Source of the DNA: a virus
Lineage: Duplodnaviria > Caudoviricetes
IMG/VR virus record: IMGVR_UViG_3300027708_000016
Reading direction: 5' to 3' (one strand)
Length of the DNA: 64,000 nt
The translations under genes and the position numbers were made by a program. The notes under the pieces were generated by a model. That model did no database searches. It worked only from the letters and a program-made list of their open reading frames with translations, and was not told the DNA's origin. How positions within the stretch are numbered: position 1 is the stretch's first letter; every line of letters starts with the position of its first letter. Below are positions 26,540 through 50,881 of the stretch, in pieces.

Positions 26540-27328
26540 TTAGATTAAAGCATCCCAAAATATTTGACTGTTATACTGTTGATATAAATCTAAACCTATG
26601 TATTCAACACAATTTGTTGTGGTTTTTTCTAATTGTGGTTTAACCTTGTGTAGGTTTGGTAAATCGGTTGCCAAGTCATTATAAACTTCTGTTTGTTGAA
26701 TTTGTTGAAAATTGTGTTCAAACTTTGGAAGTTCAAAAAAGTTATAAATTCTTTTAAGTTGTGATTTTGGATTATTACAAAATAGATTGTAATCCACAAA
26801 AAGTAAACGATCTTCATATCCTGTTATAAGTGCATCTTTTAACATTGCATGACTTAGTCCAAGGATACCATCAGGGGAAGAATAATACATTGCTCTGGCT
26901 GCAACTGTATTTGCACCGTTTAATTCGGGTGCAACTAATTTTGTTGGATTATCTTTCCTTATTCGTTCAAATGATGATAGAATCTCTGCTGGATTTCTAA
27001 CTGGGCATAAGATTTTCACTTTTTGTTGAAGTAAATTTTCCAAAAGTGGGATTTTTGAAATCCACATTCTATCTTTATCAAATATAATATCCTTTGTGGA
27101 TGTTTTGTGATAACTTTCAAGAATGCCCTTTAAAACGTTTAAACGAGCGTATTCATTGGGATATTCTCTATTTGCTTCAATATTATTCCAATTGCTTTGT
27201 ACTGCATTTAAAACTGATGCAAGTGAACTTACTGAAACACCATCAACTTTAGTATTTTGTTTTAAAATGTTTATCATCATTGTTGCACCGCTTCTTGGTA
27301 ATCCAGCAACAAAATGTAAAGTCTTCAT
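26540..27328 (-). CDS. PAPS-dependent sulfotransferase family protein
   Basis: 5'-PSB loop GLPRSGAT; 3'-PB-like VRNPAEILSSF. Confidence 0.8.
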   Translation of the reverse strand: MKTLHFVAGLPRSGATMMINILKQNTKVDGVSVSSLASVLNAVQSNWNNIEANREYPNEYARLNVLKGILESYHKTSTKDIIFDKDRMWISKIPLLENLLQQKVKILCPVRNPAEILSSFERIRKDNPTKLVAPELNGANTVAARAMYYSSPDGILGLSHAMLKDALITGYEDRLLFVDYNLFCNNPKSQLKRIYNFFELPKFEHNFQQIQQTEVYNDLATDLPNLHKVKPQLEKTTTNCVEYIGLDLYQQYNSQIFWDALI

Positions 27329-27332
27329 ATGT

Positions 27333-28379
27333 TTAACTTAATAGATTTTTTGGTTTTTTCAACTTGAATTTTTTTAATAGTGCGCTTTCTATTTTTGTAA
27401 AAGTTTCTTCCCATTTACTAAATGTTTTTTGTCTAAAAATCTTAACATTATCCTCATACCAAGGACTACTATCTTTTCCATATGCCCAAATATGATATGG
27501 TAATATTGGAGTTATTACCCATGTTGGTATGCCCATTGCACCTGCTAAATGAGCAATACTTGTGCAAGAAGTTATTACTAAGTCTAAATTTTTAATAGCT
27601 GCTGCTGTGTCTTCCCATGAAATTAATAGATGTTGCAAGTCAGTAATATCATTTGGTAATTCCATCGTATCTGTATCCCTTTGGAGAGAATAAAATTGTA
27701 TATGTTTATATTTTTTAAGATCAATTAATTTATTAGGTGGAAATATCCTAAATTGTTGATGTTCAAATTTTGTATTTCCACTCCACCTAATACCAACTTT
27801 GTATTTGTTTGAATTTATTAAATTTGCCCACTGAGAAACACTTTGTTTATTTGGTTTTATATAAGGTTTATTTGGTAGGTTTTTAAAATCATAACCAAAC
27901 AACCAACAACAACTAAACGAAGGAATCCAATAGTCGTGTTTTGTAGTTTTAATATCATTATAATTCACATAACCCTTCACACCATCAACTCTCAATAGCA
28001 AACTTTTTAAACTTGGGTCACAACATATCAGGCATTTACCACCTCTGTTTTTAATATCCCGTGCAAACCTTACATGAATAATTTGATCTCCCAATCCACC
28101 TTCAAGATTTAAAATCACCGTTTTGTTTTTTAAATTTTCTTGATCCCAAATAGGTTTGTCAGTTGGTATTTTTCTATTACCATAAACATTTAAAAATCTA
28201 CCTGCTTCTAATGATTGAAACCCTTCCTGTAATTTGCCTTGGTTAATTAAAAACCATCCCCTGTTAAATTTATGTCTCAAATCGTTAGGGTCTTGTTTCT
28301 CTAATTTTTGAGAAATTTTCCATGCTTCACGAAATCTACCTCTTACCATTAAGTTAAGCTGTTGATCTATGAGATGCAT
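27333..28379 (-). CDS. TPR-like plus GT9 (heptosyltransferase-like, GT-B) glycosyltransferase
   Basis: N-terminal TPR-like helices; EGGLGDQIIHVRF; VGIRWSGN; FYSLQ; DTAAAIKNLDLVITSCTSIAHLAGAMG. ATG at 28379. Confidence 0.8.
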   Translation of the reverse strand: MHLIDQQLNLMVRGRFREAWKISQKLEKQDPNDLRHKFNRGWFLINQGKLQEGFQSLEAGRFLNVYGNRKIPTDKPIWDQENLKNKTVILNLEGGLGDQIIHVRFARDIKNRGGKCLICCDPSLKSLLLRVDGVKGYVNYNDIKTTKHDYWIPSFSCCWLFGYDFKNLPNKPYIKPNKQSVSQWANLINSNKYKVGIRWSGNTKFEHQQFRIFPPNKLIDLKKYKHIQFYSLQRDTDTMELPNDITDLQHLLISWEDTAAAIKNLDLVITSCTSIAHLAGAMGIPTWVITPILPYHIWAYGKDSSPWYEDNVKIFRQKTFSKWEETFTKIESALLKKFKLKKPKNLLS

Positions 28380-28385
28380 CAATAT

Positions 28386-28413
28386 AGTATACTACAAAGT
28401 ATCTATTTTGCAA
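28386..28413 (-). promoter_or_regulatory. Sigma70-like promoter TTGCAA-N16-TATACT (TPR-GT9)
   Basis: The -10 box ends 6 nt before the ATG at 28379. Confidence 0.6.
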
Positions 28414-30498
28414 TTAAATTGATAATCCACTAGTATGAGATAATCCAGCATTTACATTAAACCATTTGTTATTACCAACTATTACAGGTGAGGATTTGTT
28501 TGTGGTTGTACCATCACCCAATTGACCAGAATCATTTTTACCCCATGCATATAAAATGTCGCTTGTTATTGCTGCGGAATGTAAATTACCAGCACTTATA
28601 TTTGACCAAGATAAATTACCTATTGCTACTGGACTAGATTTATTTATTGTATTAGAGTTTCCCAACTGACCAAAATTGTTTAATCCCCATGCAAATAGAT
28701 TTCCATTTGTAAGAGTTGCCAATGTATGATTACCACCTAAACTAAGTGCCAACCAAGTATTAGTACCAATTTGAACTGGAGAAGATCTTGTTATACTGTC
28801 ATTTGTTCCCAACTGACCATAGTTGTTTGACCCCCATGTTTTTAAATGGTTATTTGTATCTATTGCTCCCGAATGATACCCACCAGCTTCTGATGTAGTC
28901 CATTTATCCGCACCAATTTGAACGGGGCTACTTACGTTAGATGTTGCACTGTTTCCTAACTGTCCTTGTTGCCCAAGCCCCCAAGCATATAAAAGATTGT
29001 TTGAATCTATTGCTATATTATGAAATTTTCCACTGTGTACTTCAGACCAAACGTTGGAATTAACCTGAATAGGGGATGATGTATTATCTGTTGAAAAATT
29101 TCCAAGTTGACCGTTTGAATTTAATCCCCATGCAAATAAAATACCATTGCTATTAATAGCAACTGTGTGTTTAAATCCTGCACTTGCATTCAACCAGTTT
29201 CCTGTTCCTATTTGAACGGGTGATGATCTATCAGAAATATCATTTGTACCAAGTTGTCCACTTTGATTATATCCCCATGTAAATAATTTATTGTCTGAAC
29301 GAATCGCAACACTATGATACCCTCCAGATTTTATCACTCTCCATGATAATGATCCGAGTTGAACTGGTAATGACTGATTGTAATTTCTACCAAGCTGTCC
29401 AAATTTATTAGATCCCCATGTTTTGAGAGAACCCGTACTGAGTATACCAGCACCATTATAACTACCAGCACCAAGTTTATTCCAATTTGAATATGTTCCA
29501 ATTTGAACTGGAGATGATCTTGTTATGAGAGTTCCGTCACCGATTTGCGCCTTTGAATTAAATCCCCAAGTAAAGAGATATCCATTGTTAATTGCTTCCG
29601 TATGATACTGTCCAGCTTTTGAAAGTGTCCAATTGGTAGATGAACCTATTTGAACAGGTGAAAATCTTGTTGTTGTTGTCTGGTCACCAAGTTGTCCATT
29701 GTTATTAAATCCCCAAGTAAACAAATATCCATCGGAACGAATGGCACTACTATGTGATGCACCAGCACCAACTTTAGACCATTGTAATGAACCAATTTGA
29801 ATTGGAAGAATTTGAAGAGTTCCTGTTCCATCGCCTAATTGTCCAAATTCATTTGAACCCCATGCCCACAAATAATTATTTGTGTCTATTGCAAGACCGT
29901 GTAAATCACCAAAACTTAAAGTTTTCCATGTGTTTGATCCAATTTGAACTGGTGAACTTTGTGAGGCTCCTGTTGGTCCGTCTTGAAATTGTGTGATACC
30001 CCATGTCCACAAAGATCCATCACTTCTTATTGCCCCAGTATGAAATGCACCACAGGTAATATCTCCCCAAGTATTTGCACCAATTTGAACTGGAGAAGAT
30101 TTATCAAGAATTGTATTATCTCCAAGTTTTCCTAAACTGTTAGATCCCCAAGAAAATAATAATCCATCAGATCTTATTGCTAGGGTATTGTCTAAACCAC
30201 ATTTAACACTTGACCATGTTTGAGATCCAATTTTAATTGGAATATTAGAACTTATAGTGGTTGAATTGCCAAGTTGACCAGCATCGTTTGATCCCCATGT
30301 CCACAGGTATCCGCTACTATCGATAGCAGCCATATGAGAACCACCTACGCTTATATCATTCCATTGAGAATTGTTTACGTTTTCTGGAAATGTGGAATCT
30401 AAATTACCCAACTGACCATAAAAATCATTACCCCACAAATACAATAATTTGTTAGAGGTGTTGACATTTGTAGTTATTTTTCTAAAAAGAAAACTCAT
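28414..30498 (-). CDS. RCC1-repeat protein (14 blades, likely two 7-bladed propellers)
   Basis: 14 occurrences of L(F/W/Y/K)xWGxxxxGxxG-type blades with SSPVQIG and xSxGxxH linkers. Confidence 0.88.
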   Translation of the reverse strand: MSFLFRKITTNVNTSNKLLYLWGNDFYGQLGNLDSTFPENVNNSQWNDISVGGSHMAAIDSSGYLWTWGSNDAGQLGNSTTISSNIPIKIGSQTWSSVKCGLDNTLAIRSDGLLFSWGSNSLGKLGDNTILDKSSPVQIGANTWGDITCGAFHTGAIRSDGSLWTWGITQFQDGPTGASQSSPVQIGSNTWKTLSFGDLHGLAIDTNNYLWAWGSNEFGQLGDGTGTLQILPIQIGSLQWSKVGAGASHSSAIRSDGYLFTWGFNNNGQLGDQTTTTRFSPVQIGSSTNWTLSKAGQYHTEAINNGYLFTWGFNSKAQIGDGTLITRSSPVQIGTYSNWNKLGAGSYNGAGILSTGSLKTWGSNKFGQLGRNYNQSLPVQLGSLSWRVIKSGGYHSVAIRSDNKLFTWGYNQSGQLGTNDISDRSSPVQIGTGNWLNASAGFKHTVAINSNGILFAWGLNSNGQLGNFSTDNTSSPIQVNSNVWSEVHSGKFHNIAIDSNNLLYAWGLGQQGQLGNSATSNVSSPVQIGADKWTTSEAGGYHSGAIDTNNHLKTWGSNNYGQLGTNDSITRSSPVQIGTNTWLALSLGGNHTLATLTNGNLFAWGLNNFGQLGNSNTINKSSPVAIGNLSWSNISAGNLHSAAITSDILYAWGKNDSGQLGDGTTTNKSSPVIVGNNKWFNVNAGLSHTSGLSI

Positions 30499-30500
30499 GA

Positions 30501-32903
30501 TTAGGCATTTTGTCCAGCTAAAAATCCAAAATATGAAGTTCCACCATCGGTAGTAAAAAATGATAATGTATCAATTTTTCCATTAGTTGAAGTAATAGTT
30601 GGAACAATACCACCCGACCATTTTACCGAAGCGGGCCATGTTACAATATACTGTGAACCATTGGCAACAAATTGTAAAGTGAATGAAAAAACTTTACCTG
30701 CTGGAGGTGGGTTATTAAAGTTTACTGAAACTGTACTTGTAAGATTTGTTTTGAAAAATGTTCCACTTGCTAAATTTAAATTTAAAATATTTGATGCAAT
30801 AACAGGACTTATTAAAGTTTCTGTTATTGTTGCAAAATCAGATTCGCCAGCAACAGTTAAAGTGTTTGTATTAATTGCAGCAACTGAACTTAAATTGTTT
30901 ACATATGTATAATTTGCAGAAATAGCTATTATATTAGATCCTAAAATAAATGTATTAGAAAGTGACGTAGAATTGTTAACTCCAGCAGCAATAAACGAAT
31001 ATGATCCTGTAGAAGTATTTGAACCATAATGTGGTTGAATTGATGAGTTTGGAAAAACAACAGTATATGGTTGAATACCAGATGTTATGTTTGTATAACT
31101 ATAAACAGAATTCCAATTTGCACTAGTATTATTAACATTACTATAAACGGAAAGGTTATTTGCCGACTGACTCCCAAAAGTTGAATAAACAGAATTCCAA
31201 TTTGAACTTAAACTATTAACCTGACTATAAACAGATTTATCATTTGCACTTAATCCGTTAAGTGTCGTGTAACCAGAAAGATTGTTAGCTGACTGTGTTC
31301 CAAAAGTGCTGTAAACCGAATTCCAGTTTGTGCTTAAATTATTAACGTTGCTGTAAACAGAATTCCAATTTGAACTAACATTATTAACATTGCTGTAAAC
31401 AGAAAGATTATTTGCTGACTGACTACCGAAGGTTGAATAGACAGAATTCCAGTTTGAACTAACATTATTAACATTGCTGTAAACAGAATTCCAGTTTGTG
31501 CTTAAACTATTGACATCACTATAAACGGAAAGATTATTTGCTGATTGTGTTCCAAAAGTGCTGTAAACAGAATTCCAGTTTGTGCTTAAACTATTGACAT
31601 CACTATAAACGGAAAGATTATTTGCTGATTGTGTTCCAAAAGTACTATAAACGGAAAGATTATTTGCTGACTGAGTGCCAAAGGTTGAGTAGACAGAAAG
31701 GTTGTTTGCCGACTGACTACCAAAAGTTGAATAAACCGAATTCCAGTTTGTGCTTAAACTATTAACCTGACTATAGACAGATTTATCATTTGCACTTAAT
31801 CCATTAAGTGTCGTGTAACCAGAAACGTTATTTGCCGATTGATTACCAAAGGTGCTGTAAACGGAATTCCAGTTTGAACTAACATTATTAACATTACTAT
31901 AAACAGAAAGGTTATTTGCTGACTGTGTACCAAAAGTTGAATAGACAGAAAGGTTGTTTGCTGACTGTGTTCCAAAGGTGCTGTAAACATAATTCCAGTT
32001 TGTGCTTAAAGAACCAACGTTACTATAAACAGAAAGGTTGTTTGCTGACTGTGTTCCAAAAGTTGAATAAACCGAATTCCAGTTTGTGCTTAAACTATTA
32101 ACCTGACTATAGACAGATTTATCATTTGCACTCAATCCGTTAATTGTAGTGTAACCAGAAACGTTATTTGCCGATTGATTACCAAAGTTTGAATAAACAG
32201 AATTCCAGTTTGTACTTAAAGAACCAACGTTACTGTAAACAGAAAGGTTATTTGCTGATTGAGTTCCAATTGTAGTGTAACCAGAAAGGTTGTTTGCTGA
32301 TTGAGTTCCAAAAGTGCTGTAAACAGAATTCCAGTTTGTGCTTAAATTATTAACCTGACTATAGACAGAAAGATTATTTGCTGATTGATTATAAAAAGCT
32401 GAACTTAATCCATTAACATTACTATAAACAGAATTCCAATTTGCACTAGTTTTAATTACTAATGTATCAACATTATTGATATTTGATGAATTATTTACAA
32501 CAAATGTTGTAACTTGGTTTTGATAGCCTTGAATGCTACTACTTGAATTTACGAAAGTATAAGCAGCTTGCCATAAAGAACTTAAAAGATTAACATCACT
32601 GTAAACGGAAACGTTATTTGCCGATTGAGAAACAAAAGTAATATAAATAGAAGATTGTGAAAAATATGAACTATAAACACTGTTCCAATTTGGATAATTA
32701 GAAACAACACCAGATATTTGATTAAAAACTGTCTGTGTTGCTAGAGAAACTGGTTTATTTAAGTCGCTAGTATTGTTTACTGCGCTTAATCCCATATCAT
32801 TTTTTGTTAAAATTACGGTTCCAGAATAGCCATTTACCGTATTTACATTATTATCGTAAATTACTATTGTATCGTTGTCTACTGTTACATATGGGTCGCT
32901 CAT
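30501..32903 (-). CDS. Tail-fibre-like protein with a long 14-residue tandem-repeat stalk
   Basis: Fibre motif GLSAVNNTSDLNKPVS; central STFGTQSANNLSVY / SNVNSLSTNWNSVY repeats; C-terminal VTWPASVKWSGG...IDTLSFFTTDGG domain. Confidence 0.75.
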   Translation of the reverse strand: MSDPYVTVDNDTIVIYDNNVNTVNGYSGTVILTKNDMGLSAVNNTSDLNKPVSLATQTVFNQISGVVSNYPNWNSVYSSYFSQSSIYITFVSQSANNVSVYSDVNLLSSLWQAAYTFVNSSSSIQGYQNQVTTFVVNNSSNINNVDTLVIKTSANWNSVYSNVNGLSSAFYNQSANNLSVYSQVNNLSTNWNSVYSTFGTQSANNLSGYTTIGTQSANNLSVYSNVGSLSTNWNSVYSNFGNQSANNVSGYTTINGLSANDKSVYSQVNSLSTNWNSVYSTFGTQSANNLSVYSNVGSLSTNWNYVYSTFGTQSANNLSVYSTFGTQSANNLSVYSNVNNVSSNWNSVYSTFGNQSANNVSGYTTLNGLSANDKSVYSQVNSLSTNWNSVYSTFGSQSANNLSVYSTFGTQSANNLSVYSTFGTQSANNLSVYSDVNSLSTNWNSVYSTFGTQSANNLSVYSDVNSLSTNWNSVYSNVNNVSSNWNSVYSTFGSQSANNLSVYSNVNNVSSNWNSVYSNVNNLSTNWNSVYSTFGTQSANNLSGYTTLNGLSANDKSVYSQVNSLSSNWNSVYSTFGSQSANNLSVYSNVNNTSANWNSVYSYTNITSGIQPYTVVFPNSSIQPHYGSNTSTGSYSFIAAGVNNSTSLSNTFILGSNIIAISANYTYVNNLSSVAAINTNTLTVAGESDFATITETLISPVIASNILNLNLASGTFFKTNLTSTVSVNFNNPPPAGKVFSFTLQFVANGSQYIVTWPASVKWSGGIVPTITSTNGKIDTLSFFTTDGGTSYFGFLAGQNA
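31100..32450 (-). repeat. Intragenic tandem array of 42-bp (14-codon) units
   Basis: Two alternating unit families with mainly synonymous third-position differences; about 30 units; boundaries approximate. Confidence 0.85.
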
Positions 32904-33241
32904 GATTTTGTTATAGTTGGGTTAATTTTCCAAGTTCCTGACCAAAATGTTTTAATTTCACCAGTTTGTAGTGTTACCTTTAAATCCCATACATAATTAC
33001 CTATGGGAGCGTTAATTACCTGCGGTGGAAAATAAAAAAACCCTTGTGTTGGGTTAGATATGATTATACCACCATTAGTAGAAGAGAAAGTTATTACTGC
33101 TGGAGCATCATATTGAGTTCTAACCTGCATTTCAATGTATGCATTAGTTAAGTCTAGTGATGAAGCATTTCTATAGATGGTCAAACTTGGTATTCCTTTC
33201 CAAGTTTCTTTTGTTCTCTGATCGGGTATGGCGTAACTCAT
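32900..33241 (-). CDS. BppU N-terminal-like Ig-fold virion protein
   Basis: LDLTNAYIEMQVR...GNYVWDLKVT...KTFWSGTWKINPTIT. Confidence 0.55.
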   Translation of the reverse strand: MSYAIPDQRTKETWKGIPSLTIYRNASSLDLTNAYIEMQVRTQYDAPAVITFSSTNGGIIISNPTQGFFYFPPQVINAPIGNYVWDLKVTLQTGEIKTFWSGTWKINPTITKS

Positions 33242-33291
33242 TACCCTATATTTATCTTAAAAAAATATCAATTCGGGATTAATATTTATTA

Positions 33292-35706: not shown

Positions 35707-35744
35707 TTTTAATATTTAGTCTTAAAAAGTATTTATCAAGCATA

Positions 35745-35772
35745 TTGACTTAAAAACAACTTATGATAAATT
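35745..35772 (+). promoter_or_regulatory. Sigma70-like promoter TTGACT-N16-TAAATT
   Basis: The -10 box ends 6 nt before the ATG at 35779. Confidence 0.65.
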
Positions 35773-35778
35773 CTATAT

Positions 35779-37337: not shown

Positions 37338-37343
37338 ACTTTT

Positions 37344-37371
37344 ATCATAACGTATTATGGATACATGTCAA
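37344..37371 (-). promoter_or_regulatory. Sigma70-like promoter TTGACA-N16-TATGAT (GT25)
   Basis: The -10 box ends 6 nt before the ATG at 37337. Confidence 0.72.
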
Positions 37372-37378
37372 ATAGAAC

Positions 37379-37406
37379 TTGATTTACTTGGTTTACATGT
37401 TAAATT
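37379..37406 (+). promoter_or_regulatory. Sigma70-like promoter TTGATT-N16-TAAATT (sulfotransferase-radical SAM)
   Basis: The -10 box ends 7 nt before the ATG at 37414. Confidence 0.6.
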
Positions 37407-40237: not shown

Positions 40238-40240
40238 TTA

Positions 40241-42030: not shown

Positions 42031-42036
42031 TATTAT

Positions 42037-42064
42037 ATTTTATAGAAGAATTTTAAAAAATCAA
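42037..42064 (-). promoter_or_regulatory. Sigma70-like promoter TTGATT-N16-TAAAAT (GT2-Stf0-Stf0 operon)
   Basis: The -10 box ends 6 nt before the ATG at 42030. Confidence 0.62.
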
Positions 42065-42070
42065 GATTTA

Positions 42071-43753
42071 TTAAGCGGCTCCCAAACCTACTGGATTACC
42101 ACTTGTATCAACTCCTACTTTCCATCTTTTACCTGTGGAGTCTTTTAATACTATTATAGATGGTGTATTTGTTACTTCAAGACTATTAATATATGTATAG
42201 TTAGCTGATAATGCTGTTATATTAGATCCTAAAACAAATGAATTATCCAAACCTAAATTAATACAATTGTTTGAACCCGCTGCAATAAATGAGCAGTTTG
42301 ATCCTATATAGTTGCCTTGACCACCAGCTATAACAGAACTACGAGTAGTTAAACCATAATCATTACCATAAGGATAAGTGACACCATTACCTTTATTATA
42401 CAAAAATGTAATTTCTGCTTCGGATAATGGTCTGTACCATATTCCAAGTTCATCCATTTTAACACCATTTGCAGACGATGCATATGAACCATCTGGCTGC
42501 GCAAGTACACCATATATATTTGTATAATTTGTATTATCTATTTTATGTCCAATATAAACTCCATTTCGATACATACGTACTCTACCATTAACATCTCTAG
42601 TAAGAGTAGCCATAGTCCAAGCGTTTGTTGGGCTGCCTATAATAACATTTAAACGATAATATGCATTTGGAACACCATAATACATACAATTATAATTTAC
42701 ATTAAAGTTTAATGATCCGTAGCCTTGTCCAGAAAATTGTTGAATATTTGAATTGTAAGTAGGAATTGTCCAATAATTAATTGTAAATTCTCCAGAAAGA
42801 TTAACAGTACTGGTTGTAGATAACCATCCAGTAGTGTTACCTATAATACCATTTCCAATACGACCTGTTGTAGATGAAATTGTATTATGTTGTATTAAAT
42901 GATTAGATCCAATTGAATTATTTCTTGTTCCAGTTCCTGATTCATCAAGTTTCCAATAAGAAGTAAGATTCTGGTTTGGTATAGCTACAGTATTAGAAAC
43001 ACCACCCCCAATAAATGAAGAATATCCTGAATTTGTGTTACGTATACCTGAAGCAATATATGATTCAGCTTCGTATATAACATTACCACAACCACTACCA
43101 ATACCAGACCACCAACCAGCATTTAAAATACGATTTCTATCTCCACCCCCAATACTTGCACAATTTTGTGATAATGTATTATTTTCTCCACCATTTATTG
43201 TTGAACTCCTACTATTAATACAAATTTTATTACCATAACCACCAGCTACATTAGAGTATAAACCACCAATATCAATATTATTATTATTACCACCACCTAC
43301 ATTAGAGTATAAACCAGAAACTGTATTACCATAACCACCTGCAATAACAGATCTATTAGCAAATACTTTATTATAGGCACCTCCCCCTATAGCGGCACTA
43401 TCTCCAGTAACACAATTACCAAGACCACCTGCAATACTAGTAAAATTATAATTAGCACAATTACTACAACCACCTACAACATTAGATGCTACTCCTGTAG
43501 CTTGATTGTTACTACCACCACCGACAAATGAATAAACAGCAGAAGCTGTATTATTACCTCTTTTGGGTCGTATAGAGCTTGTAGAATCAATTAATGTATA
43601 AGGCTGAGACGATACAGATTGATAAGCTGTATCCCATTGATTACTATTACCACCAGTTATAGAAGTAGCAGAAACAGAATTAAATACAGCACTGCTTAAA
43701 CCAGTAACAGTATTATTAAATTGAAATGGTTGTGTTTCTATCTGTAAAGACAT
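42071..43753 (-). CDS. Tail fibre/adhesin with beta-roll repeats and LamG/ConA-like domain
   Basis: NxAxGxxSxxxGG repeats; SYWKLDE...GEFTINYW...WTMATLTRD...MDELGIWYRPLSEAEITFLYN. Confidence 0.8.
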   Translation of the reverse strand: MSLQIETQPFQFNNTVTGLSSAVFNSVSATSITGGNSNQWDTAYQSVSSQPYTLIDSTSSIRPKRGNNTASAVYSFVGGGSNNQATGVASNVVGGCSNCANYNFTSIAGGLGNCVTGDSAAIGGGAYNKVFANRSVIAGGYGNTVSGLYSNVGGGNNNNIDIGGLYSNVAGGYGNKICINSRSSTINGGENNTLSQNCASIGGGDRNRILNAGWWSGIGSGCGNVIYEAESYIASGIRNTNSGYSSFIGGGVSNTVAIPNQNLTSYWKLDESGTGTRNNSIGSNHLIQHNTISSTTGRIGNGIIGNTTGWLSTTSTVNLSGEFTINYWTIPTYNSNIQQFSGQGYGSLNFNVNYNCMYYGVPNAYYRLNVIIGSPTNAWTMATLTRDVNGRVRMYRNGVYIGHKIDNTNYTNIYGVLAQPDGSYASSANGVKMDELGIWYRPLSEAEITFLYNKGNGVTYPYGNDYGLTTRSSVIAGGQGNYIGSNCSFIAAGSNNCINLGLDNSFVLGSNITALSANYTYINSLEVTNTPSIIVLKDSTGKRWKVGVDTSGNPVGLGAA

Positions 43754-43755
43754 GA

Positions 43756-44478
43756 TTATGTATTAGAAATTTTTTGATATAATGCAACATCATCTGCATA
43801 ATAATCTTTAAGAATATTTATCTGATCTTGTGTTAATGTTGGTTTATTTGTTATATCAGTTTCATTTATAGTTGGAAGAGGAACTGGTAATCCGATTGTA
43901 GCACCCAAAGTATCCAATCCTTTATTAAAATCATAATAATTTATATTTTCAAAATTACCTATGATTATTGTTTGTGGTCTAAAGTGCCAATTTAAAGTTC
44001 CTTTATCTTGTTTAATTAACCAAGAAATAAAATCTTCAATATTAAGATTACTTGGAACCCCCATGAGTTTTTTTGCATATGCACTAATAAAACGATCAAT
44101 AGGATCTCTTACAATTGCATGTGGTGTTCCTGTTGGAACACTTGATAATGGAATCACGGTATTAATATGTAAACCATCTTGTGCTGACAAATCAGGAAAA
44201 AATGTATTTGCTATTATTGTTGTTAGTGTTGAACTACCTACTCTTCTAATATTAGCAATTGAATGTCCATTAGGTAGATTAAAATATATACTTTGATGAG
44301 AATCTAAATTAGTTAAACCTAAATCGTTTGCTTTATTTATAACTTCAATTTCCGTTTGTGCCAAAAAGAATTGAGGTGAGATTTGATTAAATTCGCCAGA
44401 AAGACTGACTATTAATGGATTTGAATTTTTAGCTCCGTAAAAAATTCCGTAGTATGGATTTGTATATTGTGTTGTCAT
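43756..44478 (-). CDS. Sulfotransferase (Sulfotransfer_2-like) with an extra N-terminal domain
   Basis: RRVGSSTL; VRDPIDRFISAY; WHFRPQ; YYADDVALY. Confidence 0.75.
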   Translation of the reverse strand: MTTQYTNPYYGIFYGAKNSNPLIVSLSGEFNQISPQFFLAQTEIEVINKANDLGLTNLDSHQSIYFNLPNGHSIANIRRVGSSTLTTIIANTFFPDLSAQDGLHINTVIPLSSVPTGTPHAIVRDPIDRFISAYAKKLMGVPSNLNIEDFISWLIKQDKGTLNWHFRPQTIIIGNFENINYYDFNKGLDTLGATIGLPVPLPTINETDITNKPTLTQDQINILKDYYADDVALYQKISNT

Positions 44479-44481
44479 AAA

Positions 44482-47112
44482 TTATAATGTATAGTCCCAA
44501 AGTTGAATTGCTTTATTAGTTCCATTTACATTTATTATTAAAAATGTACCAGATGCAGTTACTGGATTAGTAAATGTAGTAGGTGCAGATGTTATATTTA
44601 ATGCACTAGCATAGATTGTGTTTGTAGCACTAATATTACCAGAAACTGTTAATTTTGCATTTGGTGTTGTTGTTCCAATACCTACATTTCCATTAGCTGA
44701 TATAAATACCGTAGATGTATTACCTATACCTTTGTTATAAAAAGATAAAGATTCATTGCCAACACTTATACGCCCTAATCCACTTGTGTAATCTACAATT
44801 AAACCTGTTGTAAATAAATTTGTATAACCACCATTTGTAAAAAAACCTTTAAAGGCAGTAATAGAACCTCCTGCTCCTATACTATTATTATCGACAAGTC
44901 CTGCACCTAAATTTATATTATTAGCGAATAAAGTATTTGTAGCACTAATATTACCAGAAACTGTTAATTTTGTATTTGGTGTTGTTGTTCCAATACCTAA
45001 ATTACCAGATGAGTTAATTCTCATTCTTTCATTGGTGTTTAACGTACCACCAGTAAAAAATGTTAAATTGCTTGTACTTGCTGCTGCTCCTAATACAAGA
45101 TTGGCACTTGTTGAATAAACATATGAATCTCCTGCATTAACTACATTAAATGTAGGACTATATAAATTACCATTATATTTTGTACTTGCTATACCTAAAT
45201 CCAAATAGTTAATATTATCGTCATTATAGAGAGAAATATCGGTACTTGAACTAACACTTGGTGTTATATTTTGAATCTGATTAAATACTGATCCACTAGC
45301 CGAAGAAATAATAGTAAGAGGTGCAGAGTTTAATGTTGCAATACTAGCAGTTGATCCAAATTGAGCAACGGGAGAAGCCACTATACCTTGAGAAGAAATA
45401 TTATTAACAAATGTATAATTATTTGCACTTACTGAAATATTAGAACCTAAAATAAAATTGTTTGTTCCGCTTAAAGCATTATTTTTTCCATTTAATATAG
45501 TATTATAGTTTCCGCAAATTTTATTATTACATCCATTTATAATTGAACTAAAATTACTACACGTTGAAGAATTACCGTAACAAGATTGAATACAGTTACG
45601 AGATCCATTTAAAATTGTATTGTAACTTGAATATGTATCGGTATTGTATGTATATGAAAGATTTTTATTTGTAATACAATTAGCAGATCCATTTATAATG
45701 GAATTATTTATAAATGCTCCACCAGCTTGATAATAACAAGAATTATTATTATAATAACCAGAACCAGTACCAAGTATACTATTACCATATCCGCTTATAT
45801 TACTATAAGTAATACTACTTGTTGAATATGGTGTTGCAGCACCGCCACTTCCTACAGATGATATAATTGATGTTGCAAGAATTGTATTAAGAGTTCCATT
45901 TATTACTGTATTATAATTTGTGCATCCTAGTGTGCCATTACCTGTATAATTTCTATTACCATTTAAAATAGAATTATAACCTGCACTTATAGTACTATTA
46001 TCACTAAGTGAATTAAGATATGGTAAAATAGATGGTTGACTAATATATCCACCAATAGAACCACAATGTTTATAAAATTGTGTAATATTTGATATGTTAC
46101 TACCTCTACAAGTAAAATTATCTGTAGTTAAATTTTTTGCACATACACTAGCACCCGAAATATTTCCCATACCTACACCACCAGCAGACAAATTGTTTAC
46201 ATATGTAGTACAATCACAAGAGGCTTTAATGCTATTACCCAATATAAAAACATTAGTTTTATTATTTGTATTATTACTATAACCACCTAATACTACCGAA
46301 TAACCTCCAGAAGCTGTATTGTCTTTTCCAGTACCAATAAAATTATAATTATTTGTAACACAATTATTACATCCGCTACCAATAAAAGAATAATCACTTA
46401 CTATACATCCAGAAAAACCACCAACAATTGATGAATAATTTCCTGCAATATTATTACGACAACCAGTTCCTATAAAATTATTTGCTATTTTTATATAACC
46501 ACTATTAGATGCATTTGGAGCACCACTATAATTTGGTGTAAGAATTTGTGGTTGTTGAGAAATACAATTTTTATAACCATTTAAAATTGTGTTTGAACAA
46601 ACTACCGAACAACCAATAATTGGGTTGGTCGTGCAATTACCGTTATCATAATAATCAGATGCAGCAGCACATGCTTTAATAAAATTACAACAACCACCAG
46701 CAATAATATTATTATTTAAAATATTTGGGGGTGTACCATAACTTATTAATGAATAACTTCCGCTATATGTGCAAGTTGCAGATATAGAACTATTGTATGA
46801 ATTTAAAATAGTATTGCAACTATCATTAATAGTATTATTTATACCATTACCTATAAAATTATAAGAACTTAGTGCTCTATTATTAGATCCGCCTAGAACA
46901 GTAGACCAATTTCCAGATGCTATGTTATTACCTATTTTTAATACTATAGATGATGTAGAGGAAATTAAAGTATAAGGCTGAGTAGATAGAGACCTATATG
47001 CAGTATTCCATTGACTACTATTACCACTTATATCATAAAACAAATTACTGGTTGAAACATTACCAGTAACTGTTAGGTCATTTTTAGTCTTAAATGATAC
47101 GTTGATAGCCAT
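44482..47112 (-). CDS. Tail fibre/adhesin with beta-roll repeats
   Basis: Many NxILNGxxN / FIGxGxxN repeats; NERMRINSSGNLGIGTTTP. Confidence 0.75.
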   Translation of the reverse strand: MAINVSFKTKNDLTVTGNVSTSNLFYDISGNSSQWNTAYRSLSTQPYTLISSTSSIVLKIGNNIASGNWSTVLGGSNNRALSSYNFIGNGINNTINDSCNTILNSYNSSISATCTYSGSYSLISYGTPPNILNNNIIAGGCCNFIKACAAASDYYDNGNCTTNPIIGCSVVCSNTILNGYKNCISQQPQILTPNYSGAPNASNSGYIKIANNFIGTGCRNNIAGNYSSIVGGFSGCIVSDYSFIGSGCNNCVTNNYNFIGTGKDNTASGGYSVVLGGYSNNTNNKTNVFILGNSIKASCDCTTYVNNLSAGGVGMGNISGASVCAKNLTTDNFTCRGSNISNITQFYKHCGSIGGYISQPSILPYLNSLSDNSTISAGYNSILNGNRNYTGNGTLGCTNYNTVINGTLNTILATSIISSVGSGGAATPYSTSSITYSNISGYGNSILGTGSGYYNNNSCYYQAGGAFINNSIINGSANCITNKNLSYTYNTDTYSSYNTILNGSRNCIQSCYGNSSTCSNFSSIINGCNNKICGNYNTILNGKNNALSGTNNFILGSNISVSANNYTFVNNISSQGIVASPVAQFGSTASIATLNSAPLTIISSASGSVFNQIQNITPSVSSSTDISLYNDDNINYLDLGIASTKYNGNLYSPTFNVVNAGDSYVYSTSANLVLGAAASTSNLTFFTGGTLNTNERMRINSSGNLGIGTTTPNTKLTVSGNISATNTLFANNINLGAGLVDNNSIGAGGSITAFKGFFTNGGYTNLFTTGLIVDYTSGLGRISVGNESLSFYNKGIGNTSTVFISANGNVGIGTTTPNAKLTVSGNISATNTIYASALNITSAPTTFTNPVTASGTFLIINVNGTNKAIQLWDYTL
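44621..44999 (-). repeat. 64-bp near-identical direct repeat pair (44621-44684 and 44936-44999)
   Basis: Both copies encode GIGTTTPN(A/T)KLTVSGNISATN and differ by one mismatch. Confidence 0.85.
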
Positions 47113-47163
47113 TTAATATATACTTAATCAAATTGTTAAATATTTCCATTCAGAAATAATAAT

Positions 47164-49155
47164 TTATATTAAAGCTAAACAATGTACACTTATTAAGTAA
47201 GAATATGATGCTACGAATATAAAGTTAATATCTAAAGTGGTAGATACAGCACTAATTGTTATTCCTGATGGGGTATTTTGAATAATACCATATGGATCAA
47301 TAAAGCCATATATTGTATAATTCCAATTTGCTCCATCATAGTGTGCTAATATTTCAGCAATACCTGATTGATTAGTTGGAGAAGCTGAACCAGTATTAAC
47401 AAATTTTACCAAAAACTTTGCTGTGGTGTAACTTGCAACGGGTACGGTTGTTATTGTTGGTGCTGAAGATGTTCCAGTTGCATAATAATTTTTAGCAAGT
47501 GTTTTTGAGCTACCAGATGATCCAGTTGTTATTACACCTTGGAAAGTTGGTGAGTCTCCAGTACCTAGACCTAATGCGGTTGCACCATTTGCTACGCTTG
47601 TTGCAGTTAATACTGCAAATCCTGTTGTTGATACACCGATTGCGCTTACGTTTGCAGTAGAACCTGTGGGATTACCAAGAACACTATTAGCTGCAACTTG
47701 TTGAATCTGGTTATATTGAACTTTATTTGTACCAATTGCAGTTGGAATTGTTATATCCGCACTACCATCAAATGATGTTGATGTAAATGTTATATCACCA
47801 CTAGATGTGATATTTCTTGCTGTTTTAAGTTTTGTTGCTGTATCAGCATTACCTGTAACTGAACCAGAGAGATTTGCAACAAGTGTATCAATTGTTTTTG
47901 TATTTGTTGATACTGAATTTGCACTTGGTTCAGTAACCATGCTACTGAATAAATACCAAGGTTTTATACCATTTACTAAATCTTTACTTCTTAATAAACC
48001 AGCGTGTGCATATGTACCTGAAGTATAATGACCTACAAGACCAATATCTAATGAATCTGTAGGATTATCTTCCCCAAGATAAATTATTGGTGCGTTAACT
48101 ACCAATTCACCTTGAACTATTTGTATTGCAGAACCACCAAAATATAAACTTCCTCCAACACTAAGATTAGATCCAACACTAAGATTAGATCCAATACTAA
48201 CACTATTTGTAAAATTACCAGAAGCTGCTTGGAATGATGCAGCGGTTGAAACAATACCTGTTCCATTTGGACTTAATGTAATATTACCGTTTGATGCTGT
48301 TGAAATTGTTATACCAGCACTACCTGTAATATTACCAACACTTGAAAGATTACCTGTAACATCTTGAGTACCATTAAAATTTTGACCCCATAATGTATGA
48401 GTAGTTGTAAGGGATGCAGCACTACCTGTTGTATTTTGGTTAAGTGTTGGAATATCTGCTGCCACTATTGCACGGAATGATGGTGCTGCGGGTATACCAT
48501 TTGGTGCTGCTAAAAAGTAATTTGCAGTTTTACTACCATAAGGATTTAATGTATCACCATAAGCTGCATTAAGAGAAATTGTTGGTGTTGTACCTCCAGA
48601 TGAAGCAACTGGAGATGTTGCACCAACACTAGTTAATCTATTATTTATTTGCGTTTGAATTGCACTTGTAACACCACTAACATAACCAAGTTCTGTTGAT
48701 GTTGTTGCTGATGCTACTGGAATACCGTTTGTATCTGATACCAGTGCTCTGCTTGCGGTAATGGCAGCAGCTTCAATTATAGCTCCTCCACTTGATTGCA
48801 TTACCCTATTGTTATTCAGGGCGGTTGTACTGTTAGTGCCACCATGACTAATATCAATTGCAGTACCATTCCATGTTCCCGAAGTAATCGTACCAACTGT
48901 TACAATACTTGAACTACCAGCAAGAGGAGAAGCACCAATTGTATTATATGATACCGTTTTTGTTGAAGATCCATCAAAAGTTAAAGGTGAAGATCCACCA
49001 GATCCACCAGAATTAAACGTAATAGCATTGGCAACACTTGCAGCAGCATTACCAGAAAGTAAAAATATATTTGTAAGATTAGTTCCACTAGATAAAATTT
49101 TACCAAATGTGTTTTGGTCATTTCTAATTGTAAAAGCTGAATTTATATTTGACAT
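47164..49155 (-). CDS. Tail-fibre-like protein
   Basis: G/S/T-rich; VGTITSGTWNGTAIDISHGGT; APSFRAIVAADIP; NADTATKLKTARNI; C-terminal TAKFLV...EILAHYDG domain. Confidence 0.75.
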   Translation of the reverse strand: MSNINSAFTIRNDQNTFGKILSSGTNLTNIFLLSGNAAASVANAITFNSGGSGGSSPLTFDGSSTKTVSYNTIGASPLAGSSSIVTVGTITSGTWNGTAIDISHGGTNSTTALNNNRVMQSSGGAIIEAAAITASRALVSDTNGIPVASATTSTELGYVSGVTSAIQTQINNRLTSVGATSPVASSGGTTPTISLNAAYGDTLNPYGSKTANYFLAAPNGIPAAPSFRAIVAADIPTLNQNTTGSAASLTTTHTLWGQNFNGTQDVTGNLSSVGNITGSAGITISTASNGNITLSPNGTGIVSTAASFQAASGNFTNSVSIGSNLSVGSNLSVGGSLYFGGSAIQIVQGELVVNAPIIYLGEDNPTDSLDIGLVGHYTSGTYAHAGLLRSKDLVNGIKPWYLFSSMVTEPSANSVSTNTKTIDTLVANLSGSVTGNADTATKLKTARNITSSGDITFTSTSFDGSADITIPTAIGTNKVQYNQIQQVAANSVLGNPTGSTANVSAIGVSTTGFAVLTATSVANGATALGLGTGDSPTFQGVITTGSSGSSKTLAKNYYATGTSSAPTITTVPVASYTTAKFLVKFVNTGSASPTNQSGIAEILAHYDGANWNYTIYGFIDPYGIIQNTPSGITISAVSTTLDINFIFVASYSYLISVHCLALI

Positions 49156-49192
49156 AATATTTTATATACTTACAATTTATATAATTATTAAA

Positions 49193-50881
49193 TTAAAAAT
49201 GGTTTGTTCTTAGACCTTTTATAAAAAAAGAATCTGTATTATTAATACTATTGGGATAATTTATCCAGAAATAAACATAATTTGAATCTATTGTTGCGTT
49301 ATAATTTACTAAAATATTACCTGTTGTAATTTGACCATATTCTGAAACCACTGCTATATTGTCAATTAACGAAGCAACTAAATTTATTTCTGAATAATAA
49401 ATATCGTTACTATAATTTGCCTCTACTTGAAGCGTATACTTTGCTGTTTTAAAATCAGATAAATGAAATCTATCAACCAATGATTGCGTGTTAGTTCCCG
49501 ATAATGGAATTTGAACGAATATTGGTGTATGGGGATTTAAATTTATTGGTAAAAAATGATTTGGATTTGTTTGATCATTTCCTGCAAATTTATAAACTCT
49601 TCCATTTGTTAAGACTACATCATAACCTTTTTGTAATTGTTGAGTATTATATTGCGTAAATTGTTGTATGGTTTTATATGATGATGGTGCAACTACATCA
49701 GAATATATTAATGGAGCAAGAGATGTCGTATTACTTTCACCTAAAGAAAGTTGACCCGAAGCTGCATCGTATATTAAATTTCCACCACCTGTTTTAATAT
49801 TTGTTAAATGGCTACCGTCTCCATAAAGATAATTTGCTGTAATATTATCAGCATTTAAATTATTAACATATGTTGTGTTATCCTGTGAAGTAACAATATT
49901 TGAACCTATGACGAATGAATTGTTGTTGGTTGCTGTATTATTTTCACCTCCCAATATACCAGCATAGTTACCAGATGCAGTATTGTTTTTACCGCCTAGA
50001 ACATTAGAATATGTACCAGATGCAGTATTATTACCGTTTGTTGGCACTATTGAAAAATCACCAGTACCTGACATGTAAATCTGTTCACTTATGACAGGTA
50101 TTGACGGACTAACTTGACCTACCGTTAACCCTATTCCTTGTGAAAAATCAGAAAAGCTTCTTAATAATGGGGGAGCAGAAGATTGAGTAGAATCTTCTAA
50201 GGTTTTACCATCGGTTGTTAAAAATTTAGAATCAATGGTATAGATTTTTTTGTAAACCTCATCCATGCTTTTAAACATCCAACCTTTAATGGTAAATTGT
50301 GTCGTTGCGGTTATTCTATATGGTTGAGTGGGTCCCAAATTGTCTGGGTACTGCATGTTTATATTACCACTCCAAAGAACTTCACTTCTTATTTCATAAG
50401 GTGTGCTTGATTTGTGATTGCTTGGTAATTTCCAAGATATAATAATATATGGATCGGTATAGGGAACAAAATTCGTAAGAATTTGATCCATGTCAGCTTG
50501 ATACCTTGTTATAATTGTCATGTCAATTGTTATATTGACGGGAACAGGTTGAGGTATATGTTTTAAGAAGTTTCCACTTCCATCTTTAGGATCATAATCA
50601 ATGGTAAACCCATCAATTTTATTAAAAACTCTTGCTTGGTCTCTTGAAATACTTCCAATATTAACGGCAATAACAGGAACGGTTAATCCACCCGCCGCAG
50701 GACTATTTAAATTACTAAAAACCCTTTGTTTTGGTGAATATACGAATAAAACCTTATCACCAGTAACAGGCTCGACTAAAGTTTCATTTTGATCATACCT
50801 TTTGATGATAACATCATTAAAAGCACCGATAAATTGCTCAACAAGCGTCTGGACTTCCCAATTAAAAGTATAATTCTTCAC
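49193..50881 (-). CDS. gp15: Tail sheath stabiliser/terminator (T4 gp15-like) fused to fibre-type C-terminal domains
   Basis: N-terminal ~220 aa: FIGAFNDVIIKR, YSPKQR, PVPVNITIDMTI, DMDQILTNFVPY. C-terminal part: NNTASGTYSNVLGG repeats and an FKTAKYTLQVE domain. GTG start. Confidence 0.8.
   Translation of the reverse strand: MKNYTFNWEVQTLVEQFIGAFNDVIIKRYDQNETLVEPVTGDKVLFVYSPKQRVFSNLNSPAAGGLTVPVIAVNIGSISRDQARVFNKIDGFTIDYDPKDGSGNFLKHIPQPVPVNITIDMTIITRYQADMDQILTNFVPYTDPYIIISWKLPSNHKSSTPYEIRSEVLWSGNINMQYPDNLGPTQPYRITATTQFTIKGWMFKSMDEVYKKIYTIDSKFLTTDGKTLEDSTQSSAPPLLRSFSDFSQGIGLTVGQVSPSIPVISEQIYMSGTGDFSIVPTNGNNTASGTYSNVLGGKNNTASGNYAGILGGENNTATNNNSFVIGSNIVTSQDNTTYVNNLNADNITANYLYGDGSHLTNIKTGGGNLIYDAASGQLSLGESNTTSLAPLIYSDVVAPSSYKTIQQFTQYNTQQLQKGYDVVLTNGRVYKFAGNDQTNPNHFLPINLNPHTPIFVQIPLSGTNTQSLVDRFHLSDFKTAKYTLQVEANYSNDIYYSEINLVASLIDNIAVVSEYGQITTGNILVNYNATIDSNYVYFWINYPNSINNTDSFFIKGLRTNHF

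Follow-up and report, generated by a model that had tools for sequence, protein, structure and literature searches.

Glycosyltransferase and sulfotransferase genes among the fibre genes of two variable islands in a freshwater T4-like phage, and a candidate role in fibre glycosylation

Gene content of the two islands

The 64-kb stretch of viral DNA analysed here (64,000 nucleotides of the IMG/VR record IMGVR_UViG_3300027708_000016; hereafter, the window) contains two hypervariable islands, one on each side of the portal gene gp20, in which genes for five predicted sulfotransferases, four glycosyltransferases (GTs; two firm assignments and two leads) and a radical S-adenosylmethionine (rSAM) enzyme of the SPASM type lie among five mosaic fibre genes and a gene for an RCC1 propeller (Table 1). 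This interleaving of enzyme and fibre genes, pointed out in a preliminary description of the sequence, is borne out by the gene map, by composition and by the modules that the fibres share. The same description had treated everything between gp13 and gp15 as one contiguous system and made no mention of the portal gene. Comparison with related loci (numbered L001-L123 below) shows a different arrangement: the core order in relatives is primase, o213, GT2_5, five small genes, gp15, o181, gp20, gp13-like, TnsA-like, gp21, gp22 and gp23, and gp15, o181, gp20 and the gp13-like gene are contiguous in three loci (L004, L022 and L062), where the islands are wholly absent. The stretch is therefore made of two separately variable islands that flank the portal gene, with island A (35707-49192) bounded by gp20 and gp15, and island B (26511-33291) bounded by the gp13-like gene and o181.

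The window has a GC content of ~31% and is part of a viral record of 82,451 bases, to which CheckV assigns a completeness of 38%; complete and near-complete (92-100%) relatives measure 195-227 kb. A megablast search of the whole window against cultured phages gave no match. The portal and major capsid proteins are just 30-35% identical to their cyanomyovirus counterparts, whereas IMG/VR holds 79 related loci with portals 46-81% identical, and the neighbourhoods of these 79 portals are the set in which the presence or absence of homologues was counted. The sequencing runs that contain the window come from freshwater or lake metagenomes, and six freshwater runs contain 89-100% of the words sampled from it; no RNA data set is among the runs listed. 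Given this divergence and these sources, the phage is an uncultured freshwater T4-like myovirus. Independent assemblies of at least nine samples have the identical gene order, which thus is no assembly artefact.

All five sulfotransferases of the preliminary description (ST1 to ST5) were recovered where it had placed them. ST1, ST2, ST4 and ST5 pass the Pfam cut-offs; ST3, a paralogue that stands in tandem with ST4 (28% identity, E 5e-20), falls below them. The 5'-phosphosulfate-binding (5'-PSB) and 3'-phosphate-binding (3'-PB) motifs for 3'-phosphoadenosine 5'-phosphosulfate (PAPS) are readable in all five, with P11, R12, S13, T16, R115 and S123 invariant in the alignment of ST2 with ST1, and we predict all five to be PAPS-dependent. 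The start of ST2 used earlier (37414) suits the homologues of 272-274 amino acids (aa) better than the longer open reading frame (ORF) does. ST2 was the one sulfotransferase modelled among the five; its AlphaFold2 (AF2) model (predicted local distance difference test, pLDDT, 87.7) had 69 matches in the PDB at E <= 1e-3, the 50 listed being sulfotransferases throughout, and its nearest folds are those of the protein tyrosine sulfotransferases TPST1/2 (~1e-8) and of NoeE (3.9e-8). The N-terminal extension of ST5 has no paralogue in the contig; a scan of viral contigs with the single ST5 protein found none, and a two-sequence ST5 profile recovered L001 and L003 only.

The four GTs that had been proposed divide evenly: GT25 (by Pfam) and o311 (by the fold of its AF2 model, pLDDT 87.2) are firm, whereas o349 and o315, as well as o260 outside the islands, are leads suggested by language-model feature matches and motifs. 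Searched with Foldseek against the PDB, the o311 model matched 3tov (GT9), WaaF and WaaC at 1.6e-11 to 5e-8 and TibC at 5e-8, and the top 16 matches in the Swiss-Prot part of the AlphaFold Database (AFDB) are heptosyltransferases of lipopolysaccharide (LPS) or lipooligosaccharide (LOS), or a putative GT. Since o311 itself misses the profile cut-offs (no Pfam match; TIGR02201 at 24.5 bits against a cut-off of 170), we take it, on the strength of the model, to be GT9-fold, or GT9-like, and not a curated GT9 member; some distant members of its family do reach PF01075 (P0212 and P0270). The family is large, with 387 close metagenomic homologues and 1612 clusters at 50% identity. For o349, a weak hhalign alignment to the o311 family and a weak match of residues 10-58 to designed tetratricopeptide repeat (TPR) proteins point to a probable TPR and GT9-like protein; it had no Pfam match and no transmembrane segment, and a single-protein scan of viral contigs found one locus. 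The features of o315 match a 'putative Glycosyl transferase family 2' cluster at 0.99 and PF00535, PF02709 or PF10111 clusters at 0.96, with no match in Pfam, PHROG, NCBIfam or PDB sequence searches, and PDB sequence searches with o349, o311 and o315 returned nothing useful.

The rSAM assignment is confirmed by the Radical_SAM and SPASM profiles and by a CX3CX2C motif (CNARCPMC), followed by six C-terminal Cys; a twitch-type rSAM model of NCBIfam matches at 7e-15, every NCBIfam match being below its cut-off. A function as anaerobic sulfatase maturase was considered and rejected (NF010321, 16.4 bits against a cut-off of 441), and the 82-kb fragment holds no sulfatase gene and no DUF1501 gene. 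None of the island enzymes has a transmembrane segment (19-residue window, mean hydropathy >1.6), and the islands contain no flippase, polymerase, ABC transporter or initiating phosphoglycosyl transferase. The threshold is exceeded in two island ORFs only, at the mis-started N-terminus of the rSAM ORF and at the C-terminus of fib663, the last ~20 residues of which are strongly hydrophobic (mean hydropathy 1.94 over 19 residues), an unusual end for a fibre. Several of the enzymes are strongly basic (net charge +19 for o349, +13 for ST4 and +8 for ST3).

The five fibre genes are mosaics. The ~330-aa extension of gp15 has beta-roll modules in common with fib876, fib800 and o560, and fib800 shares modules with the gp15 extension, o560, fib876 and a 1023-aa protein of the baseplate/fibre block (3652-6723, minus strand), in which 14-residue repeats of the fib800 type stand together with an RCC1-like propeller part; the modules of the island fibres are thus also present in the core fibre set. 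One module of o560 recurs in fib800 and in the gp15 extension. In relatives, gp15 mostly measures ~230-260 aa, long forms being found in some as well (L093 and L108). The T4 whisker gene wac is likewise located among neck genes, and with fibre genes lying among the neck genes here and gp15 fused to a fibre module, the candidate fibres may be of the collar or whisker type. The RCC1 propeller is probably a fibre-associated adhesin; a complex prediction for its residues 30-694 with residues 1-335 of o349 scored 0.00, which gives no verdict. The preliminary description had also drawn an analogy with HMW1C-type N-glycosylation, and this analogy found no support, since N-x-S/T sequons do not exceed the frequency expected from composition in any fibre but fib876, where the excess is weak (z 2.3).

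Two other GT-like genes had been noted outside the islands. The gene at 52694 has Pfam support but is a core gene of the clade, and o260, at 59619, is fucosyltransferase-like by its features. Upstream of o260 (60402-60470), a direct repeat of ~17 bases, ACTTAAATATCTTATAAT, can be seen by eye twice, with a shorter related copy before it. Beyond the window end (L121; G000:C1:71000-82451), a UvsW-like helicase and a gp47-like phosphoesterase are followed by a further run of glycan genes (a second GT25, a Nucleotid_trans and an Exostosin GT47 gene), away from fibre genes. Between the gp13-like gene and gp21, a TnsA-like endonuclease gene (25068-25514, minus strand; Pfam 4.1e-21) occupies the same place in 35 related loci with up to 93% identity, which suggests a fixed gene rather than a mobile homing element. 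Finally, the small protein o83 was considered as a precursor of a ribosomally synthesised and post-translationally modified peptide and rejected, as it has no Cys and adjoins gp15 in relatives without an rSAM gene.

Table 1. Features of the two islands, of the core genes that bound them and of two GT-like genes outside them (window coordinates; o349, o315 and o260 are leads)
Feature	Coordinates	Strand	Evidence and remarks
gp13-like head-tail adaptor	25581-26510	-	PHROG 211 'head-tail adaptor Ad2' 1.6e-19; core gene in 38 of 79 portal loci
ST1	26540-27328	-	Sulfotransfer_1 4.6e-12, Sulfotransfer_3 2.2e-11; motifs PRSGAT, RNPAEILSS
o349, probable TPR + GT9-like	27333-28382	-	Atlas feature matches 0.97-0.99 to Glyco_transf_9/TPR clusters; GGLGD motif
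RCC1 double propeller	28414-30498	-	WD40_RLD 5.9e-206; 12 Pfam RCC1 repeats; starts 2 nt after fib800
fib800, S/N-rich repeat fibre	30501-32903	-	C-terminus PHROG 9017 tail fiber 7.2e-13; S 20%, N 17%
o113, small protein	32900-33241	-	PHROG 1084; adjoins portal or fibres in 18 loci; TAAATA late-type motif before start
gp20 portal	33844-35706	-	Portal_T4 1.6e-97; core gene between the islands
o311, GT9-fold glycosyltransferase	35779-36714	+	AF2 model and Foldseek; first gene of o311-ST2 cassette
GT25 family	36711-37337	-	Glyco_transf_25 2.5e-14; antisense insert between o311 and ST2
ST2	37414-38238	+	Sulfotransfer_3 1.4e-7; motifs PRSMST, RNLKSIFSS; partner of o311
Radical SAM / SPASM (twitch-type)	38243-39238	+	Radical_SAM 5.6e-9, 36.8 bits vs 29.5; SPASM 2.8e-4, 21.6 vs 21.5
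o83, small conserved protein	39235-39486	-	Homologues directly before gp15 in L001-L003; TATAAATA just upstream
ST3, Stf0-like	39518-40237	-	Stf0 4.3e-4, 20.3 bits vs cut-off 22; motifs TRCGSN, RKNKFLKNLS
ST4, Stf0-like	40241-41095	-	Sulphotransf (Stf0) 8.3e-9, Sulfotransfer_3 8.4e-7; motifs PRTGST, RQNKFLQEFS
o315, probable GT-A (GT2/GT7C-like)	41083-42030	-	Atlas features; overlaps ST4 start
o560 fibre	42071-43753	-	G/N/S-rich beta-roll-type repeat with central globular insert; G 14%, N 13%, S 12%
ST5	43756-44478	-	Sulfotransfer_2 3.3e-7; motifs RRVGSST, RDPIDRFISAY after ~75-aa N-terminal extension
fib876 fibre	44482-47112	-	N/S/G/T-rich; TAAGTA late-type motif before start; repeats in common with gp15 extension
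fib663 fibre	47164-49155	-	PHROG 7389 tail fiber 3.1e-5; T/S/G/A-rich; TAAGTA upstream
gp15 tail-sheath stabiliser with fibre-type extension	49193-50881	-	T4-gp15_tss 1.7e-17, residues 9-230; PHROG 227
GT2_5	starts 52694		Pfam 4e-11; found in 31 loci
o260, fucosyltransferase-like (NodZ/FUT8/O-FucT)	59619-60401	-	Features

Cassettes, promoters and donor supply

Within the islands, the enzymes are arranged as units of a glycosyltransferase and a sulfotransferase, and these units recur next to fibre genes elsewhere. The clearest case is o311 followed by ST2, a two-gene cassette in 20 of the 27 loci found with o311, at differing genome positions. In closer relatives, the two proteins are 71-88% identical, which is above portal conservation (79-88% for ST2, which directly follows o311 there), and o560-like ORFs abut the cassette in several relatives. 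Among the 16 distinct loci that are informative for its surroundings, the cassette lies directly beside a fibre-like ORF in six and within two genes of one in nine, against baselines of 5% and 13%, respectively, for the other genes in portal neighbourhoods. The rSAM gene, which starts 4 nucleotides (nt) after ST2, belongs to the same arrangement at least once more; that is, L089 has the identical order o311, ST2, rSAM and o83, with an rSAM homologue of 71% identity.

Two other units show the same association. The o349-ST1 pair (ST1 starts 4 nt past the end of o349) stands behind the o113-fib800-RCC1 operon, of which o113 is the first gene, and in a second phage (L116) homologues of RCC1, o349 and ST1 (50%, 65% and 59% identity, respectively; ST1 at the equivalent position) follow a run of fibre-like ORFs in the same order. 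ST5 is placed even more tightly, separated by 3 nt from fib876 upstream and by 2 nt from o560 downstream and without a promoter of its own, and the order fib876-ST5-o560 is kept in L001, in L003 and in at least nine samples; o315, ST4 and ST3 extend this transcription unit with overlaps or 3-nt gaps. Co-occurrence of the enzymes with fibre genes in relatives, the absence of which the preliminary description had named as an argument against itself, was therefore found for o311-ST2, RCC1-o349-ST1 and fib876-ST5-o560.

The theme extends to phages outside the clade. In the cultured Pelagibacter phage HTVC112P (L122; MN698246.1, 32 kb; 4728-7879), a GT of the o311 family adjoins a tail-fibre gene: the 'putative glycosyl transferase' is annotated from the final base of the 'putative tail fiber' onwards, and lysis genes follow. 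HTVC112P is a tractable system in which fibre glycosylation could be tested. In the marine Kyanoviridae phage AG-345-L05 (L123; MH319754.1, from single-cell amplification; 4226-11573), fibre and glycan genes form a run on one strand, in the order 916-aa fibre-like ORF, 2-oxoglutarate-Fe(II) (2OG-Fe(II)) oxygenase, sulfotransferase, 111-aa ORF, o311-like GT9-fold gene and NodU-type carbamoyltransferase. The sulfotransferases annotated in the cyanophages S-SKS1, S-SRM01 and S-SCSM1 are 23-29% identical to ST2. As a separate observation, in L104/L105 (8896-14133) and L107 (9174-11800; records G023 and G004) o311, with or without ST2, lies away from fibres and is followed by two DUF1501 genes (E ~1e-111 to 1e-135) that the window phage does not have. 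We take DUF1501 to belong to an alkaline-phosphatase/sulfatase-like clan, and if it is sulfatase-like, then sulfate-adding and possibly sulfate-removing enzymes neighbour each other in these genomes.

Protein fusions suggest what such units may make. Relatives of o311 are fused to GT25 (P0124, P0129 and P0133, the GT25 parts of which are 34-42% identical to the GT25 of the window), to an FkbM methyltransferase (P0125, P0212 and P0246) and, in P0203, to a C-terminal domain that bears both PAPS motifs. To judge by these sequences, the family would pair one core GT with swappable capping enzymes, the cap being sulfate, methyl, carbamoyl or a second sugar, and the fusions together with the carbamoyltransferase neighbours therefore argue that the sulfate goes on a sugar, according to a logic of oligosaccharide tailoring. 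It is also conceivable that ST1 and ST2 act independently of the GTs as protein tyrosine sulfotransferases (TPST/RaxST-like) on Tyr residues of the fibre repeats. TPST1/2 chains indeed take the first 13 places among the PDB matches of the ST2 model (7.7e-9 to 1e-7, with the next family at 7.5e-6), TPSTs head the Swiss-Prot AFDB list as well, both proteins match Sulfotransfer_3, and the fibres contain 6% Tyr at fixed registers in their repeats. However, the sugar sulfotransferase NoeE matches equally well, and the TPST lead may mirror which members have solved structures; further, the sulfotransferase is strictly coupled to a GT, and the partner elsewhere is an FkbM, GT25 or carbamoyltransferase domain, as expected for sugar tailoring. 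Known TPST sites have acidic residues around the Tyr, and the fibre repeats have almost none there. Taken together, we regard tyrosine sulfation as very improbable.

The expression signals are less clear-cut. By eye, the sigma70-like promoters that had been reported before most enzyme genes can be followed, in that TTGAC(A/T)-N16/17-TAnnAT precedes o311, GT25, ST2, o349 and o315 as it does the early genes gp44 and primase, and GT25 has the best such match of the region (11/12). Counted against shuffled sequence, however, sigma70-like matches are not in excess (125 vs. 119.8), nor is the canonical TATAAATA enriched (18 found vs. 18 expected), and the promoter classes used here draw solely on where a pattern stands and on how closely it resembles those of bona fide early and late genes. 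A second pattern, (A/T)TAAGTA or TAAATA, stands 7-15 nt before the starts of gp21, gp22, gp13-like, gp25, gp20, gp15, fib876, fib663 and o127 (for instance, at 47121-47126, 49160-49170 and 26515-26525), and may be the core of this clade's late promoters, with very short leaders.

The supply of PAPS and nucleotide sugars, which had been proposed as a check, was found in part. The 82-kb fragment (38% complete) has no kinase for adenosine 5'-phosphosulfate (APS), but the two closest long relatives with ST2 (163 and 177 kb) do (1.5e-54 and 1.7e-46; 180.9 and 154.9 bits), and each also has a gene of the nucleoside diphosphate (NDP)-sugar dehydratase family. No APS kinase was found in 18 other relatives, two of which are near-complete genomes without sulfotransferase matches (two Pfam families searched). 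A phage-type APS kinase family is present on many contigs of 200-226 kb, and since one of its clusters and the cluster of o311 homologues list the same longest contig, of 202,984 bases, an o311 homologue and an APS kinase appear to lie together on one 203-kb contig. With regard to the sugar, the heptose supply gene gmhA (GmhA-type SIS_2) is absent from five records (the phage's own fragment and four relatives); with no heptose pathway gene, the GT9 fold does not settle the sugar donor.

Candidate acceptors of the glycans

The reading that we favour, tentatively and with somewhat less than even confidence, is that the enzymes decorate the phage's own neck and tail fibres, in the cytoplasm, with short sulfated glycans. 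Each island would be an exchangeable accessory-fibre module that brings along its own set of cytoplasmic tailoring enzymes: a soluble GT (o311, o349, o315 or GT25) would add one or a few sugars to Ser/Thr-rich repeat fibres and adhesins as they fold in the infected cell, and the partner sulfotransferase (ST2, ST1, ST4/ST3 or ST5) would cap the sugar with sulfate from PAPS, with a possible further change to the sugar by the rSAM enzyme that is coupled to ST2. In lineage members with an APS kinase gene, this phage enzyme would make the PAPS from host APS. The product would be a negatively charged glycan coat on neck and tail fibres that could tune adsorption or protect the fibres. Two elements are inferred, namely, that the sulfate acceptor is a sugar, not tyrosine, and that the glycan acceptor is a fibre. 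Consistent with fibre decoration, ST5 lies inside a fibre operon behind a late-type TAAGTA motif, o311-ST2 is enriched beside fibres in spite of its differing genome positions, the arrangement recurs in L116, HTVC112P and AG-345-L05, and the enzymes come without membrane segments and without export parts. From the original proposal of sulfated fibre glycans, the enzyme identities, the interleaving with fibres and, in two relatives, the PAPS supply were retained, but the single system and the HMW1C and Aah/TibC analogies were not.

Several observations weigh against fibre decoration. The fibre acceptor is predicted from gene content; the early-type promoter patterns suit an action on the host at least equally well; the nearest folds of o311 are LPS heptosyltransferases, ahead of TibC/Aah; and one relative that is 92% complete and bears a sulfotransferase is among those without an APS kinase. 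Receptor-modifying genes that travel with receptor-binding genes would predict the same adjacency to fibres, and fibre and glycan genes both gather in hyperplastic regions regardless. In addition, the sulfotransferases of cultured cyanophages lie away from fibres, as does the GT island beyond the window end in this phage's own genome. Lastly, the cassette (79-88% identity) is conserved far above the adjacent fibres (26-50%), and an acceptor in the fibres would need to be a module that is itself conserved.

Many of these observations would also follow if the enzymes remodelled a host envelope glycan (LPS core, capsule or extracellular polysaccharide) at the cytoplasmic face and thereby masked or changed the receptor, with the benefit of excluding superinfecting phages or keeping progeny off debris. 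We consider this explanation a serious one, albeit on balance rather doubtful. It agrees with the best structural matches of o311 (WaaF, WaaC and WaaQ), with the early-type patterns before most enzyme genes, with cyanophage sulfotransferases that are not linked to fibres, and with the high conservation of the cassette, which would match a conserved host acceptor. The strongly basic o349, ST4 and ST3 are what anionic lipid or glycan substrates would lead one to expect, ST2 is as near to NoeE, the sulfotransferase of Nod-factor fucose, as to TPST, and 'LPS' gene clusters are found in T4-like cyanophages (PMC3037559). Yet ST5 lies within a late fibre operon, the islands have no membrane or export component, and the search of five related records turned up no ADP-heptose pathway. 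Moreover, the GT of HTVC112P stands just before lysis genes and, if expressed late, would come too late for exclusion, and a lytic infection would leave all but newly exported LPS unchanged.

Alternatively, the islands might have no common function at all and consist of hyperplastic-region cargo, with small molecules, sulfolipids or glycan-hypermodified DNA as targets and the adjacency to fibres as a by-product of insertion tolerance. That the islands are missing from L004, L022 and L062, and that the 79 portal neighbourhoods yielded no homologue of GT25, rSAM, ST3, ST4, o315, o349 or RCC1, would fit such a view, as would the resemblance of ST3 and ST4 to Stf0, which sulfates free trehalose, and the ability of virus GTs to hypermodify DNA (Pyle et al. 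2024, as cited in PMC12619734). Random cargo, on the other hand, does not readily account for cassettes that recur as units across lineages and are enriched beside fibres, for domain fusions that link GT9, GT25, methyltransferase and sulfotransferase, for the tight coupling within operons (2-4-nt gaps or overlaps), or for the strong conservation of the o311 family. Hence, we think this explanation improbable.

The reading of fibre decoration can be widened to the suggestion that several aquatic lineages (the freshwater T4-like clade, cyanomyoviruses and pelagiphages) cap fibre glycans by means of portable cassettes of a GT and a capping enzyme, which would be exchanged together with fibre modules and draw on PAPS from a phage APS kinase. 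We put this forward as a possibility that we would not yet bet on. Neither a sulfated phage virion nor a fibre-linked cassette of a GT and a sulfotransferase was reported in any paper that the literature searches brought up. If fibre decoration is correct, a sulfated virion glycoprotein would be described for a phage for the first time and would add a layer of control over host range and adsorption, giving a function to part of the unexplained load of glycan genes in aquatic T4-like phages; with fibres as the target, adsorption, host range and particle stability would all be affected, and the modelling and engineering of virion proteins as well. With the host surface as the target, the enzymes would represent a new receptor-masking function for lytic phages. 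In either case, the question can be tested in cultured carriers, namely HTVC111P, HTVC112P, S-SKS1, S-SRM01 and S-SCSM1.

Comparison with known systems

The layout at the o311 locus resembles that of the bacterial autotransporter heptosyltransferases (BAHT; TibC-TibA and Aah-AIDA-I), in which a cytoplasmic GT9-fold enzyme is encoded beside a beta-structured repeat adhesin that it modifies on Ser/Thr, and this was the analogy of the preliminary description. The features that define the family are, however, missing. Residues 2-297 of o311 align with residues 91-350 of Aah, 99-356 of TibC, 98-382 of BAHTCr and 128-423 of BimC; that is, o311 begins at the first Rossmann strand and lacks the N-terminal extension of ~90-130 residues. 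The iron site of BAHT enzymes ('iron-containing' in PDB titles) consists of four Cys, whereas an alignment of 21 sequences of the o311 family has one Cys (C98) conserved at >=90% and none invariant, with no such cluster. As o311 is also closer to LPS heptosyltransferases, we rejected membership of the BAHT family. Likewise, the integral-membrane transferase and flippase of seroconversion systems of the GtrABC/Oac type were not found among the island proteins.

TPR-glycosyltransferases offer a parallel for o349. FlmG of Caulobacter binds flagellin through its TPR domain (PMC7591256), and o349 would resemble FlmG and OGT-type enzymes in that a TPR region, here a short one, seems to be linked to a GT-B domain; it differs in that the TPR part measures only ~70 residues and the GT part looks GT9-like. 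The enzymes of Nod-factor synthesis (NodH, NoeE, NodZ, NodU/NolO and NoeI) resemble the islands as a soluble cytoplasmic capping set for sulfate, fucose, carbamoyl and methyl groups: the ST2 model matches NoeE at 3.9e-8 and NodH at 6e-6, and o260 is NodZ/FUT8-like by its features. The islands have no chitin-oligomer synthase or acyl-transfer genes, however, and the likeness is one of toolkit, not of membership.

Among phages, the closest precedent is found in mycobacteriophages, the virion glycosylation of which is phage-encoded (Freeman et al. 2023, Cell Host Microbe, as described in PMC12619734). According to that description, their GT genes lie beside or within the structural block, as in the window phage, and decoration takes place in the cytoplasm without export machinery; the modified proteins are capsid and tail-tube subunits of actinobacteriophage siphoviruses, which carry the glycans at their C-termini, and that account reports no sulfation. 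In the window phage, by contrast, the candidate targets are accessory fibres of a T4-like myovirus and each GT is paired with a sulfotransferase, a picture drawn from gene content.

The other precedent is provided by the 'LPS' or cell-wall clusters in hyperplastic regions of the T4-like cyanophages P-SSM2, S-SSM7 and S-SM2 (Sullivan et al. 2010, PMC3037559), for which the same paper asks whether the glycan genes are functional or 'stuffer DNA', and the role of such genes in aquatic T4-like phages has been debated since the first cyanophage genomes. Both sets of glycan genes occupy variable regions of T4-like phages, but the cyanophage clusters are large and lie near hli, phoH and tRNA genes or between gp47 and gp46, not inside fibre operons, whereas the window phage carries small, conserved and mobile cassettes of two to three genes, each with a GT and a sulfotransferase, set among fibre genes at the neck-gene block.

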